NCBI GenBank assembly: GCA_029820045.1
Contig: JALGVE010000001.1
Location: 1 to 58,963 of the forward strand
Direction: 5' to 3'
Source of the DNA: Candidatus Zipacnadia bacterium
GTDB lineage: Bacteria > Armatimonadota > Zipacnadia > Zipacnadales > UBA5352
Length of the DNA: 58,963 nucleotides
Positions 48,904 to 58,850 of the stretch are shown here, piece after piece (position 1 is the stretch's first letter; each line of letters begins with the position of its first letter). Under the pieces are notes generated by a model. The model did no database searches, had not been told where the DNA came from, and worked only from the letters and a program-made list of their open reading frames with translations. Position numbers and translations under genes: made by a program.

Positions 48904-48907
<4 letters not shown>
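48254..48907 (-). CDS. CBM9-like/DOMON-like domain protein without signal peptide
   Basis: 217 aa from the ATG at 48907. MDGKLGAWGNEY...YYLSWNGRGLYLALDV...GDALDLFIDTR...YSLELALRTEAL...IGLALVLHD...DPSTWSLIELV follows the CBM9-like pattern. The ATG overlaps the uvrA-fusion stop (ATGA). Confidence 0.6.
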
Positions 48908-55188
<6,281 letters not shown>

Positions 55189-55263
55189 CAGGGTCGCTCA
55201 CTCACCAAAACAGAGAAGGTCACGCTGAGGCCCGTGAGCCCTGCTGCGAGCCTGTTGCGGAGA

Positions 55264-55292
55264 ATAGTGGCAGAACATCTGTTCGGTGTCAA
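55264..55292 (-). promoter_or_regulatory. Promoter of the uvrA fusion with an embedded LexA (SOS) box of the GAAC-N4-GTTC type
   Basis: On the minus strand: TTGACA (55292-55287), 17-nt spacer, CACTAT (55269-55264). The spacer contains CGAACAGATGTTCT (55285-55272), with the perfect palindrome GAAC-AGAT-GTTC at 55284-55273. Confidence 0.6.
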
Positions 55293-55333
55293 CGTGCCGT
55301 GCAGAGGGGATGACCACTCGACCGAGACGACCG

Positions 55334-55873
55334 CTACCTGAACGGCGGGATATCCACAGGGAGGCCAACCCTCATGAAGAACCTGGCAAAGGCCTGAGCT
55401 AGGTGTTCCCGGTAAGGAGGCCGCAGGCGAAGGCGTAGTGAAGCTATGTTTGCCCTCTCCTTCAGGAAGCCAAAAGGTACGCCGTAGACATTGCGGAAGT
55501 CAACTACACGGTAGTCCCTCTCGAAGCCTTGGATGGTGCAGCGATTCAGTAGATGGTAGCCGGGCGCATCGCCGCGCCGTAGTGCTTCCTTCCCCTTGAC
55601 GCTGGCGTAATGGGGACTGTTCGCCCCGAAGACCTCCATGTCCCACACTGGACATACCAGGACGAGTTGAAGCTTCTCGTAGTGAAGGTCACATGACTGA
55701 CTCATGACCACTACGTCGTAGGTCTGATAGCCGCCGACCAGGGCACCCTCTTGGACCTCAGCGTCCGGGACCAGCACGGGGCAGTCGTCGAAGAAATCCC
55801 CCTGAGATAGCGGCACTCCTCCCTGAACCAGCCCGTACCATGGGTACTCTGGCGCCTCGCGCTCTGCCATCAC
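55334..55873 (-). CDS. Hypothetical protein (179 aa), family not recognised
   Basis: Coding-like composition. GTG 55873 or ATG 55870, 8-11 nt after the upstream stop. Motifs VVVMSQSCDL and RPPYREHLAQAFARFFMRVGLP. Hand GC count of 55401-55500 is 58%. Confidence 0.6.
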   Translation of the reverse strand: MMAEREAPEYPWYGLVQGGVPLSQGDFFDDCPVLVPDAEVQEGALVGGYQTYDVVVMSQSCDLHYEKLQLVLVCPVWDMEVFGANSPHYASVKGKEALRRGDAPGYHLLNRCTIQGFERDYRVVDFRNVYGVPFGFLKERANIASLRLRLRPPYREHLAQAFARFFMRVGLPVDIPPFR

Positions 55874-55881
55874 TCACTGCC

Positions 55882-56277
55882 TCAGGTGTCGGTGGGCTCA
55901 ACGACTAGGGGCTCAGCCTTCCGCACGTACTTCACTTGTATCCTCATAGGGGTCACGCTCTTGGGCGCCATCCGCACCACGACGTTGTGTTCCAGCTCTG
56001 GCACTGCTTCAGAGGCCGCTGGCTCACAAGGCACTCGGATCGAAGCTGTCTCGACCCTCGAACCCACGCGCGGCAAGACTGAGGACATATCCAGCACTAG
56101 CGAGGAGGAGACCTCCTGGGCACCACGCCCCCGGCGCGCTGCCTTCGTGAGGTTGTGTGGCTTCGTGTCAAAGACCTGACTCAGGGCCGTGGATACCTGC
56201 GAGGTCTGTGACGACCACGAACCGCTTTCCCAGTCCGTATAGGTTACTTCGTGTGAGACTGCACACTGCATCATCAT
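55882..56277 (-). CDS. Hypothetical protein (131 aa), family not recognised
   Basis: The ATG at 56277 overlaps the stop of the upstream gene (ATGA). Ser/Thr-rich N-terminal half. No recognisable motif. Confidence 0.5.
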   Translation of the reverse strand: MMMQCAVSHEVTYTDWESGSWSSQTSQVSTALSQVFDTKPHNLTKAARRGRGAQEVSSSLVLDMSSVLPRVGSRVETASIRVPCEPAASEAVPELEHNVVVRMAPKSVTPMRIQVKYVRKAEPLVVEPTDT

Positions 56278-57044
56278 TCGAACCTCCTCTGAAGCTCGCC
56301 CTCGATCATCTTGAAGAACCAGTCGTGCGTCAGGCAATGGGCTTCTTCGAGCCAAGCAGGTATCTGGCGGGTGTCCTCAGGCGCCTCCGCCCCGGTGGAC
56401 TGGACAACCGTTTCCCATATCAGCGCCTCGTGGCCCCTTGTGTTGCCAAGGGCGAACCGGACGTTCATGGCGCCCCTCGGCTTGTCACAGGGAAACGAGA
56501 ACCGCAGGTCCAAGTTCGAGGCAACGCTGCAGACCCCCGTGTCCTTAAAGAGCTCCGGCTGCAGCTCGATTCTTGTCTTGAGGTAATCCCTCAGGAAGTC
56601 GAGCGCGTCGGTATTCTCACGATCGAGGGTAACCGAGTCGATGTAGCGTAATACAAGGCGCTCTATCTTGAGGCCTTCGGGCTGGGGATAGCTCTCACGA
56701 AGCTTGGCCGTTACTGCGCACACTCTTTGCTCGAAGTCCTGCCAGACGTACCCCTCGGTATCGTTGACCGTCATGATGCCCGGCCCTAACTGAATGAGAG
56801 GCCACTCCCCCTCGCCTTTCCTGAACCGATGCTGGACCATGTACGCAGCGATCTCATCAGGGATGTCAGCTGTGGGGAGCCTCTCATGGAAGGGGTATTC
56901 GCCCTCAATCCTGTCGTACAGCCTCCCGATCAGTATTCCATAGTTTGGATCGGTCTTCAGCTCAGAACCTGCCTCCTGGAGCTCCCAATGCACTTGAAAG
57001 ATAGCCTCGACAAGCGGCTTGTTCGTTAGCACTGTGTCAGGCAT
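56274..57044 (-). CDS. TIGR04255-like conserved hypothetical protein
   Basis: 256 aa from the ATG at 57044. The N-terminus MPDTVLTNKPLVEAIFQVHWE resembles the characteristic TIGR04255 start (..PP[IL]VEA..E.RF). The alternative ATG at 57068 is possible. Confidence 0.55.
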   Translation of the reverse strand: MPDTVLTNKPLVEAIFQVHWELQEAGSELKTDPNYGILIGRLYDRIEGEYPFHERLPTADIPDEIAAYMVQHRFRKGEGEWPLIQLGPGIMTVNDTEGYVWQDFEQRVCAVTAKLRESYPQPEGLKIERLVLRYIDSVTLDRENTDALDFLRDYLKTRIELQPELFKDTGVCSVASNLDLRFSFPCDKPRGAMNVRFALGNTRGHEALIWETVVQSTGAEAPEDTRQIPAWLEEAHCLTHDWFFKMIEGELQRRFE

Positions 57045-57316
57045 TCTGGGACCCCCGGGCGCCACCATGTCATCTGGGCGCCATTGACTCAGACGGACAG
57101 AGTTGCAAGGATGTTCGCCCCCAGCAACAGGCACAGCAAGAGCACGACGCCACCGGCGCCGCGGCCCGTGGTTAGACACACAGCGCGTGAATCCTCGCCC
57201 CGCGTGGACCGCCGGTCTCCACGTCTACTAGCGAGGCACACTCCCGTGGATGCCCTCATTAAGGCAGCGCGACCGAGGCGGCCGGGTCCCCGCTCTGGCT
57301 GTCGTCGTTGCTTGCC

Positions 57317-58735
57317 TTACCCTTCGCACACCCAAACCAGGAACTCGTCGTAGGCATCGCTGAACTGCTTGAGGGTGCGGGCGGAGGGCACGAAGTTGAT
57401 GAAATCCTTCGGTTCCATGCCGTCCGGCTCGTAGGCCTGGTGGAAGATCTCACTCTTGCAGAGCTTGTCGTGGTAGCCGGCGGGCAGCGGCGCCCACATG
57501 CCGTCCGGCTTGATCTGTCGCCGCTTCTCCTCGAACTGCTCCTGCCGATTCGGGAACACCGTGATGAACATAGTCACCGGGCCGTTGGCGATGGTGCGCG
57601 TGATGTTCCACGGCCCCCGGCCGGATGCGGCCAGCGGCGCGCTCTTCGTGAAGCCCAGCCCGCCCTCCTCAGGCGGCAGGCACAGCATCTTGTATTCGCG
57701 CTGCCGGATGGCGGTCGTGGCCCACTTCTTGACTTCCTCCCAGTCGGAGACGCCGGCCGCCTGCAACTCCTCACCGACCGGATCATCCAGCCGCCCGTCC
57801 ATCTGCGTGCGGAAGGTCACCTTGGCGGTGCTGTTCGCCTCGATGGCGCCGGCGAAGGCGATCTGCTGCGGTAAGGAGTAATTGACAGTCACATTCACGC
57901 CTTTGCCCGTGGAGGTCAGCGCCGCCGCGGCCGGGATGCCCGCCGCGGTGCCCGGGACCTTGAACACGGTGTTCGGCGTGCCGCCCAGCTCATCCTCGAG
58001 TTGGCCGTAGACCCAGGTCGCCTCATCAATCATCTTGCCTGCGTCCCTTGCCTCCTTCGGATTGAGCTGGAGGCTGACATAGCCGAGGGCCCCGTCCGTG
58101 ATCTCCCAGATGGGCCGCAGCAGCCGCGCGTTGGCCAGCACCACCTGGATCGTCATCGCGTAGGCAAGCTGCACCGGGTCGGAGGTCCCGTACTCCTCGC
58201 GCAGCTTGTCCCGCACCGGCGTCCAGTACGCGGGGTCTTCCTTGCGCGCTACGTCCACCAGGACCGGGTTGGTCGTGACCAGGATCGCGCCTTTCTGCAT
58301 CGCCTTGCGCAGGCCGGAGGCGTAGTCGTTGCCCCAGTGCGTATTGCACTCCCCGGCCAGGGTCTTGCGCGTGATGCGGGCGAGGTTGCTGTTCTTGATG
58401 GCCTCGGCCTCATCCCGCGCGCGCTTGGCCTCCGCCGACTCCCCCAGTTCCTCCAACAGCGCAACCGTCTTCTCGAACTCCTCGTTCAGTTCCCCGTCTG
58501 AGCAGACCGCATCGCCGAAGCGGTCGCGGTTTTTCAGGTTCCACTCCGATAGGATTGACTTGAGGTCAATGGCGCTCTCTGCCAGCGTCTCCGCAATGTC
58601 AGCCTTGTCCGCTTTCTTCGCCTTGCCGTAGAGCGACTTCATGTCGGCCCGGAACTCGCTCTCACGGTCCGCGAGGTCACCGGGCACGGTCTTGAAGATC
58701 AGGTCTTGCACAAGTGCGACTTGCTCGTCAGTCAT
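57317..58735 (-). CDS. Transaldolase-family protein with an N-terminal extension of about 120 aa
   Basis: GAGGAG RBS 9 nt before the ATG at 58735. Blocks GAILVTTNP, YVSLQLNP, FKVPGTAAG (Schiff-base Lys) and NVTVNYSLPQ. Confidence 0.7.
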   Translation of the reverse strand: MTDEQVALVQDLIFKTVPGDLADRESEFRADMKSLYGKAKKADKADIAETLAESAIDLKSILSEWNLKNRDRFGDAVCSDGELNEEFEKTVALLEELGESAEAKRARDEAEAIKNSNLARITRKTLAGECNTHWGNDYASGLRKAMQKGAILVTTNPVLVDVARKEDPAYWTPVRDKLREEYGTSDPVQLAYAMTIQVVLANARLLRPIWEITDGALGYVSLQLNPKEARDAGKMIDEATWVYGQLEDELGGTPNTVFKVPGTAAGIPAAAALTSTGKGVNVTVNYSLPQQIAFAGAIEANSTAKVTFRTQMDGRLDDPVGEELQAAGVSDWEEVKKWATTAIRQREYKMLCLPPEEGGLGFTKSAPLAASGRGPWNITRTIANGPVTMFITVFPNRQEQFEEKRRQIKPDGMWAPLPAGYHDKLCKSEIFHQAYEPDGMEPKDFINFVPSARTLKQFSDAYDEFLVWVCEG

Positions 58736-58850
58736 TCGCTTACTCTCCTCATCTGTCCACGAATTGCTCTGCGGCGGGTTAGCCCGCCGCGAGTTTCGAT
58801 GTTCTTGTACCATATACCTTCTCCAAGCGCAACCCATGACCTCCTTCGAG

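Follow-up and report, generated by a model that had tools for sequence, protein, structure and literature searches.

A putative tripartite toxin-antitoxin module of Bacteria and Archaea that couples a TIGR04255-family protein to a two-module antitoxin and an exchangeable toxin

In toxin-antitoxin-chaperone (TAC) systems the antitoxin bears a chaperone-addiction (ChAD) extension, in which a SecB-like chaperone recognizes an aromatic pattern. The unit of chaperone and ChAD can be moved from one toxin-antitoxin (TA) family to another and still functions when attached N-terminally, and phage structural proteins that compete for the chaperone trigger the toxin, so that the chaperone can also act as a phage sensor (PMC5105189; bioRxiv 10.1101/2024.02.24.581848; PMC11618068). 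Literature searches on tripartite TA systems turned up TAC, HipBST and similar systems only, and no account was found of the module described here. This module is a cassette of three genes, designated A, B and C, located in a 58,963-nt stretch (the window; contig JALGVE010000001.1, positions 1 to 58,963) of the genome of a Candidatus Zipacnadia bacterium. The product of gene A belongs to TIGR04255, a curated family of unknown function, of which no mention was found in 8.3 million full texts under TIGR04255, IPR026349 or CHP04255.

We interpret the cassette as a tripartite, mobile, type II-like TA module composed of three uncharacterized families, and assign this reading a probability of roughly 0.7. 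The three open reading frames (ORFs) are intact, lie on the minus strand in the order A-B-C and are translationally coupled (coordinates are summarized in Table 1). The stop codon of B (55884-55882) is followed by the start of C after 8 nt (GTG 55873) or 11 nt (ATG 55870), with GAGG in front of it. Typical features of type II TA loci are present: the small genes are adjacent, co-directional and tightly spaced, a labile-looking protein precedes the folded putative toxin, and the distribution is sporadic.

A B-type ORF was found directly upstream of C in approximately 80 of the 80 genome loci identified through C (gap of -4 to +46 nt) and, as far as gene order indicates, B-C is the obligate core pair. 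Gene A is optional. It was present in 37 of the 71 genome loci with enough upstream sequence, in 33 cases as a member of a narrow A clade and in four (L043, L053, L069 and L073) as a divergent TIGR04255 protein encoded upstream of B-C (134-144 bits, E 1e-39 to 1e-42). In most A-containing loci the stop codon of A overlaps or directly adjoins the start codon of B (-3 or 0 nt).

A metagenome scan with the A profile yielded 80 loci, 73 of which had at least 950 nt of downstream sequence. The order A-B-C was observed in 53 of these 73, and most of the others encode A, a related B protein (B') and a PIN-domain protein. The latter arrangement, with a 133-aa PIN-domain protein (PF01850), was recorded in 17 listed metagenome loci and in one complete 2.19-Mb genome (L008); its B' proteins (123-182 aa) consist of the shared N-terminal module followed by a helical acidic region ending in ...EAVKRRPLFK. 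In locus L133, A is followed by another variant (B'') and by a canonical MazF/PemK-like protein of 110 aa (GDVVVVPFPFSD...KRRPTLVI...ITSQ). The exchange of the B and C pair for B' and PIN, or for B'' and MazF, occurs behind near-identical A proteins, and alignment of the B proteins associated with C, PIN and MazF revealed a common N-module of approximately 90 residues followed by toxin-specific tails. Since A and the N-module also precede PIN/VapC and MazF toxins, C occupies an exchangeable toxin slot. The assignment of C as toxin and of B as its antitoxin, and the view that A and the N-module of B form a separable unit, find their strongest argument in this swapping. Loci L140 (907-1305) and L143 (2363-2761) each contain an in-frame fusion of B to the final ~10 residues of C (...IRKGRPVPVDIPPFK), which looks like decay by deletion of nearly the whole toxin gene with A and B kept, as would be expected for a TA system.

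Protein B had no significant match in Pfam, NCBIfam, PADLOC or PHROGs, and a direct protein search yielded only two hits and a single relative, so it looked like an orphan. It was matched by two profile hidden Markov models (HMMs) built from related loci, one for the N-module (E 1.5e-4) and one for a C-terminal motif (E 5e-9). This motif of ~35 residues, (D/N)hhVRMPPK+RYxhxhxVKxh+KAxPxhVEPE, matched in 145 of the 181 sources searched; most of the 151 C-carrying sources have it, and it is not found in the B' and B'' proteins that accompany PIN and MazF, as judged from the loci and the alignment. The part of B outside this motif varies among loci. In locus L061 (4000-4974) a 324-aa tetratricopeptide repeat (TPR) protein (TPR_1, E 1e-46) encoded directly upstream of C ends in the same motif, and therefore the proposed C-neutralizing segment can be attached to very different N-terminal domains.

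The N-terminal part of B is linked to A. B proteins have a median length of 130 aa where A is present and of 96 aa where it is not, and in the latter the A-linked N-terminal motifs are missing. A-linked B proteins start with a conserved aromatic-rich motif, MMYQLTMQDVTYQDYPIQY.S.S[ST], and contain two further motifs, ...EILDxLL... and ...LLxLLEIDxSSVxPxFEIKSETSLIE; aromatic residues and Ser/Thr are abundant in the N-module as a whole. An HMM built from residues 1-90 matched 105 of the 127 A-containing loci vs 1 of the 53 A-less loci. B is small and predicted to be largely disordered, with conserved termini. No DNA-binding domain was recognized by Pfam when the window's B, ten B proteins from A-less loci and the N-terminal fragments of these were searched. 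In the cultured Asgard archaeon Promethearchaeum syntrophicum MK-D1 (NZ_CP042905.2; L042, 4690-5513), which carries a two-gene B-C version and no TIGR04255 gene, B shows a divergent C-terminal motif, and its N-terminus resembles a ribbon-helix-helix (RHH) domain by eye. The RHH- and DUF104/AbrB-like resemblances seen by eye in the A-less Promethearchaeum and planctomycete B proteins were not confirmed by Pfam, also when isolated fragments were searched at E ≤ 10, and were rejected.

Protein C gave no match at E ≤ 1 in Pfam, NCBIfam or PADLOC and no significant one in PHROGs. A k-mer-seeded search returned 2,727 relatives, of which the best 120 are all 57-72% identical to the window's C and originate from Chloroflexota, Omnitrophota, Desulfofervidaceae, Freyarchaeota, Theionarchaea and others. 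An exhaustive profile search gave 2,333 clusters at 50% identity, nearly all of them single-domain proteins of 165-200 aa. A few homologues carry extra segments of 40-125 residues, in the form of C-terminal helical tails (P0261, P0262, P0331) or of a 126-aa N-terminal extension (P0303). No B-C or A-B gene fusion was evident among the long C homologues.

The AlphaFold2 model of C is confident (predicted local distance difference test, pLDDT, 86; predicted template modelling score, pTM, 0.82). When it was compared with the PDB using Foldseek, 31 of the top 32 matches were endoribonuclease toxins of the MazF/Kid/PemK type, with probabilities of 0.85-1.0, E values from 2e-3 to 0.16, and template modelling (TM) scores of 0.52-0.65 normalized to the target and ~0.4 normalized to the query. 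At the level of the model, C is thus predicted to have an SH3-like β-barrel core and a C-terminal helix of the MazF/PemK/CcdB type, the match being modest and confined to the fold. C is ~65 residues longer than MazF, with a helical insertion at residues ~79-100 and a long C-terminal helix that is extremely conserved (LRPPYREHLAQAFARFFMRVGLPVDIPPF). Among 52 diverse members, Q24, G25, C61, D62, L150, P153, E156 and R168 are invariant and the segment R147-P172, R.RL.PPYREHL.QAFARFFMRVGLP, is nearly so. The C family profile found no MazF among PDB sequences in an hmmsearch, and a sequence-level link between C and MazF was rejected after hmmsearch and hhalign; with a match in fold only, C is termed here a MazF-fold protein rather than a MazF.

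The conservation of C has to be considered together with a reading outside TA biology, in which A and C would be enzymes that process B as a peptide substrate or precursor, in the manner of a ribosomally synthesized and post-translationally modified peptide or of a protease-substrate pair, or the three proteins would form a housekeeping complex. The smallness, disorder and conserved termini of B would suit such a role, as would the unusually good conservation of C and the invariant Cys, Asp and His residues, potentially catalytic, of a narrow C clade. Four cysteines are invariant within this clade, and C gave a weak ferredoxin match (E 0.14), but in the 52 diverse members C61 is the only invariant cysteine (C74 is conserved in at least 90%), and a family-wide four-cysteine Fe-S or Zn cluster was rejected. 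Moreover, A and C match no enzyme family, B-C lacks an accompanying A in roughly half of the genomes, C is exchanged for PIN and canonical MazF behind the same A and N-module, and the sporadic distribution speaks against a housekeeping role. We therefore regard this explanation as very improbable.

Protein A matches NCBIfam TIGR04255 over model positions 2-252 of 252 with 125 bits (cut-off 30; E 4.4e-36), and its homologues, 256-257 aa long, share 53-60% identity across bacterial and archaeal phyla. It has no match in Pfam, PADLOC, PHROGs or PDB sequences. Its AlphaFold2 model (pLDDT 80, pTM 0.81) contains a duplicated β-α-β4-α unit with a topology loosely of the TATA-binding protein (TBP)/helix-grip type. 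Foldseek against the PDB gave nothing convincing for this model; the best matches were SRPBCC/Bet v 1 proteins with TM scores below 0.35, and SecB was absent from the top 50. Identification of A as SecB, as a type III-secretion chaperone or as an Eag chaperone was rejected (ShcA, E 1.4; EagT6/DcrB, probability 0.2-0.3; all non-significant). The best match in BFVD, an unnamed viral protein of 202 aa (E 4e-7; TM 0.46/0.56), was uninformative. A is acidic (pI 4.85; family median 5.8), a property that would fit protein binding better than DNA binding.

An earlier reading of the window made without database searches (the sequence-only reading) had described the first protein as TIGR04255-like, in agreement with the full-length, above-cut-off match, and had recognized no family in either small protein, as was also found here. 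As possible refutations it had named partners that are not conserved beside TIGR04255 homologues and clear homology to housekeeping enzymes. The former is countered by the prevalence of A-B-C, followed by A-B'-PIN, among the A-profile metagenome loci, and no housekeeping homology was found for A, B or C.

In the mechanism that we propose, C would be a toxin of a new family with a MazF/CcdB-type barrel fold that arrests growth. Because of this fold RNA cleavage is the default guess for its action, and a conserved protein may be the target instead. RNA-cleaving MazF toxins are usually basic; C is near-neutral, which leaves room for a protein target. B would be the antitoxin, with the β-rich motif in its C-terminal ~35 residues binding and neutralizing C and its ~90-residue N-module serving as a handle for A. 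By binding the N-module, A would govern how stable, well folded or available B is. C would then be freed, and growth would stop, when A is lost or titrated or when B is degraded. The analysis itself shows the arrangement of the genes, the predicted fold of C, the two-module make-up of B, the joint occurrence of A and the N-module, and the exchange of C for PIN or MazF; we infer the physical interactions, the toxicity and target of C, and a role for A as either a chaperone or a sensor; this last role is suggested by analogy, and we hold it with less confidence than the TA architecture.

The analogy is with TAC systems, among which HigBAC, CmdTAC and the HicAB- and MqsRA-associated TACs were compared. 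Like these, the module comprises three genes, and its third protein goes with an aromatic-rich, probably disordered antitoxin extension; the accessory protein and extension are combined with several unrelated toxin families (here C, PIN and MazF), and two-gene versions lacking both exist. Unlike the SecB-like chaperones of TAC, A is a TIGR04255 protein of ~256 aa with a duplicated α+β fold. ChAD is C-terminal and lacks sequence conservation, whereas the extension here is N-terminal, ~90 aa long and marked by three conserved motifs; the gene order here is accessory-antitoxin-toxin. The role of A may parallel that of a SecB-like chaperone acting on a ChAD extension and, if the analogy is right, the likeness would be convergent.

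With MazEF, Kid-Kis (PemIK) and CcdAB the cassette shares the predicted core fold of C and the small, partly disordered, translationally coupled protein encoded directly upstream of it, and in L133 the place of C in the operon is taken by a canonical MazF. In contrast to the toxins of these systems, C lacks sequence homology to them, is longer by the margin given above, has the helical insertion and the long invariant C-terminal helix, and is not basic; the catalytic Arg/Thr positions of MazF are not evident in it. B differs from MazE, Kis and CcdA in lacking an AbrB or RHH DNA-binding domain. The sister cassettes in which a PIN toxin and a helical acidic B' (...KRRPLFK) follow A and the N-module resemble VapBC, but the cassette of the window has no PIN domain, and classical VapB has an N-terminal DNA-binding domain and no TIGR04255 partner. 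As in Panacea (PanA, DUF4065; PMC8832971), a single conserved module combines with many different types of toxin. The promiscuous domain of PanA is the antitoxin itself, whereas here the constant unit consists of A and an adaptor module on the antitoxin, and no sequence relation between the cassette and PanA was found. We class the system as a TA module with an accessory addiction partner, and not as TAC or MazEF, since the sequence and fold features by which those systems are defined were looked for and not found in it.

Several observations weigh against the TA interpretation. A shows no detectable similarity to SecB or to a known chaperone in Pfam, PDB sequences or Foldseek, its proposed role being argued from analogy and co-occurrence, and none of the three proteins matched a PADLOC-DB 2.0.0 family at E ≤ 1. 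There is no sequence similarity between C and MazF/PemK (Pfam gave no match, and hhalign against canonical MazF gave a probability of 0.1%), and even the best Foldseek E value (2e-3) and the query-normalized TM score are modest. C has a pI of 5.8 (family median 6.15) and, with ~60% identity between domains of life, is unusually conserved for a toxin. Finally, no DNA-binding domain was detected in any B protein, the A-less ones included, which leaves autoregulation unexplained.

The last point is where a different role for A has to be weighed, namely that of the transcriptional regulator of the operon, comparable to omega in omega-epsilon-zeta or PaaR in paaR-paaA-parE, with the N-module tethering B-C to A for conditional cooperativity. 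Another protein might supply the autoregulation that B seems unable to provide; A is encoded by the first gene of the operon, and its duplicated unit is loosely of the TBP type. On the other hand, A bears no helix-turn-helix, RHH or AbrB signature in Pfam or NCBIfam and has no structural match to DNA-binding proteins, and its acidity is a mild argument in the same direction. A-less B-C pairs likewise lack a detectable DNA-binding domain, so A is not an obvious replacement for one. A regulatory role of this kind seems improbable to us.

Returning to the TA interpretation, a more far-reaching version of it can be formulated, which we offer tentatively and consider somewhat doubtful. TIGR04255 would represent a second class of addiction partner, unrelated to SecB, which docks on an aromatic-rich N-module of the antitoxin, acts as a stress or phage sensor and has been plugged onto at least three toxin warheads, including the new MazF-fold family C. 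The near-invariant C-terminal helix of C would be directed at a component that is conserved across Bacteria and Archaea, and the system would operate in Asgard archaea, in methanogens and in numerous uncultured phyla of bacteria.

Gene C was identified in at least 566 species (one genome per GTDB species was scanned), among them Promethearchaeum syntrophicum MK-D1, Methanothrix, anaerobic methanotrophic archaea (ANME), Methanoperedens, Kuenenia, Gemmataceae, Saccharibacteria and Pacearchaeota. In Methanothrix (L017, L018, L027, 3600-4900, and L030, 3100-4900) two or three GC-rich repeats of ~310-355 bp, 73-93% identical to one another, lie before a two-gene B-C. They do not resemble a CRISPR array and could be regulatory or similar to miniature inverted-repeat transposable elements.

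The neighbors of the cassette are heterogeneous and mostly housekeeping genes. Among 130 immediate neighbors at 80 loci the maximum for any Pfam family was two occurrences, as seen for HepT, PIN, NYN and restriction-endonuclease domains; a conserved fourth gene was rejected on these grounds, and defence-island placement is therefore not a general feature. The Acetomicrobium locus, situated between nitroreductase and radC genes, is an example of a housekeeping setting, and that of the window is of the same kind. A dense defence island was found in L008 (1-16774; CP184673.1, 872091-888864), where A, an acidic 179-aa B' and PIN are accompanied by type III CRISPR genes of the repeat-associated mysterious protein (RAMP) superfamily with CorA, a HEPN/nucleotidyltransferase (MNT) pair, an IS110 transposase and a MjaI-type restriction-modification (RM) pair. 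L003 lies among HEPN and nSTAND3 genes, and L124 and L128 have a DUF262-like neighbor recognized by eye and unconfirmed by a Pfam scan. A tblastn search with A and C gave no match among PLSDB plasmids and INPHARED phages, and C was detected on only 7 of 2.9 million IMG/VR contigs; carriage by plasmids or phages was rejected on this basis.

These data bear on the possibility that the module is an abortive-infection anti-phage system, with A as a dedicated sensor of phage proteins and the TA behavior as its resting state, an explanation that overlaps with the TA interpretation and differs from it in the role assigned. TAC systems of the same logic defend their hosts through chaperone-mediated sensing (bioRxiv 10.1101/2024.02.24.581848; PMC11618068), the L008 cassette sits beside type III CRISPR, HEPN/MNT and RM genes, and some neighbors elsewhere are DUF262-like, methyltransferase or HepT/PIN genes. 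However, PADLOC gave no match, no defence family recurs among the mostly housekeeping neighbors at the 80 loci, the window's cassette is placed between transaldolase-like and uvrA-like genes, and neither A nor C was found on a cultured phage or plasmid, with the few IMG/VR contigs for C pointing the same way. We consider a dedicated anti-phage role rather unlikely. The sequence-only reading had proposed an undescribed module of TA or defence type, which is supported overall; its TA half is favored by the MazF-like fold of C and by the PIN and MazF proteins in the same slot, whereas the empty PADLOC result and the housekeeping neighbors speak against its defence half.

The composition of the cassette, compared within the window, is atypical. 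Its GC content is 0.587 vs 0.656 +/- 0.016 in equal-sized windows elsewhere (z = -4.4), none of which is as low, and the GC content at third codon positions (GC3) of its genes is 0.69-0.735 vs 0.82 +/- 0.05 for the long, likely genes of the window. This agrees with the horizontal acquisition that the sequence-only reading had suggested from two hand counts, of which the 65% for 54001-54100 was right, whereas 55401-55500 has 56% GC and not 58%. Both A and C show a sporadic, cross-domain distribution, occurring in Asgard archaea, methanogens, the candidate phyla radiation (CPR), Planctomycetota and Chloroflexota. The 53-62% identity of A and C between domains, the variable flanks and the low GC content here together indicate frequent horizontal transfer of a self-contained module. 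No flanking direct or inverted repeats, convincing terminator or promoter, or Rfam element was identified within 54900-57500, and insertion scars at the cassette borders were accordingly rejected.

The window derives from the Joint Genome Institute (JGI) metagenomes 3300033141, 3300033149 and 3300033150. The longest ORF of A reaches 57179, and the JGI gene call starts at 57068. Since the homologues of A are 256-257 aa long and can be aligned from MxxxxLxNKPL, ATG 57044 is the likely start and preferable to 57068. The extent of 55334-57068 given by the sequence-only reading holds for the presence of three genes and is probably too long at the A end; its account of three coupled minus-strand genes between a transaldolase-like gene and an SOS promoter agrees with the ORFs, the PF00923 match and the LexA box, and both the ATGA overlap at 56277-56274 and the 8-11 nt between B and C were confirmed on the sequence. 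The uvrA-like ORF contains two UvrA units in tandem (the Pfam list has both UvrA_inter and UvrA_DNA-bind twice) and has a ~190-aa C-terminal extension without an obvious domain. The Cheo-type LexA box is the sole match in the window (0.37 expected by chance; at least one in 27 of 100 shuffles). Owing to the position of this box between C and the uvrA-like gene, the cassette lies just upstream of a likely SOS-regulated promoter, and cassette transcription could read through into it.

Table 1. Features of the A-B-C cassette and its surroundings (positions in the 58,963-nt window)
Feature	Position	Strand	Description
Gene A	56274-57044	minus	TIGR04255-family protein, 256 aa; alternative upstream ATG 57068 gives 264 aa
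Gene B	55882-56277	minus	131 aa; proposed antitoxin/adaptor with two modules
Gene C	55334-55873	minus	179 aa from GTG 55873, 178 aa from ATG 55870; proposed toxin with MazF/Kid-like fold
Shine-Dalgarno sequence of B	56283-56288	minus	AGGAGG inside the end of A; read from the sequence
ATGA overlap, A stop/B start	56274-56277	minus	A TGA 56276-56274, B ATG 56277-56275; translational coupling
B N-terminal module	56008-56277	minus	Residues ~1-90; MMMQCAVSHEVTYTDW...SSLVLDMSSVLPRVGSRVETAS; co-occurs with A whichever toxin follows
B C-terminal motif	55885-55989	minus	Residues ~97-131; NVVVRMAPKSVTPMRIQVKYVRKAEPLVVEP; specific to partners of C; proposed C-neutralizing segment
Transaldolase-family gene	57317-58837		PF00923; flanks the cassette
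uvrA-like gene	48904-55188	minus	2,094 aa, TTG start; directly downstream of the cassette
Cheo-type LexA box	55273-55285	minus	CGAACAGATGTTC; between the C stop and the uvrA-like start

If the TA interpretation is true, a role would be assigned to TIGR04255 and to two unannotated families, of which C alone comprises ~2,300 clusters at 50% identity, and three uncharacterized families, which occur in hundreds of species of Bacteria and Archaea, would obtain their first functional context. It would also mean that chaperone-addiction logic of the TAC type arose independently with a non-SecB protein, and would broaden the idea of TA warheads wired to exchangeable sensor or stabilizer modules. Conservation as strong as that of C points to a universal target, and C could therefore serve as a tool for growth control. 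The module is common in organisms whose TA and defence biology is almost unexplored, namely Asgard archaea, including the cultured Promethearchaeum syntrophicum, Methanothrix, ANME, anammox bacteria, CPR and DPANN.

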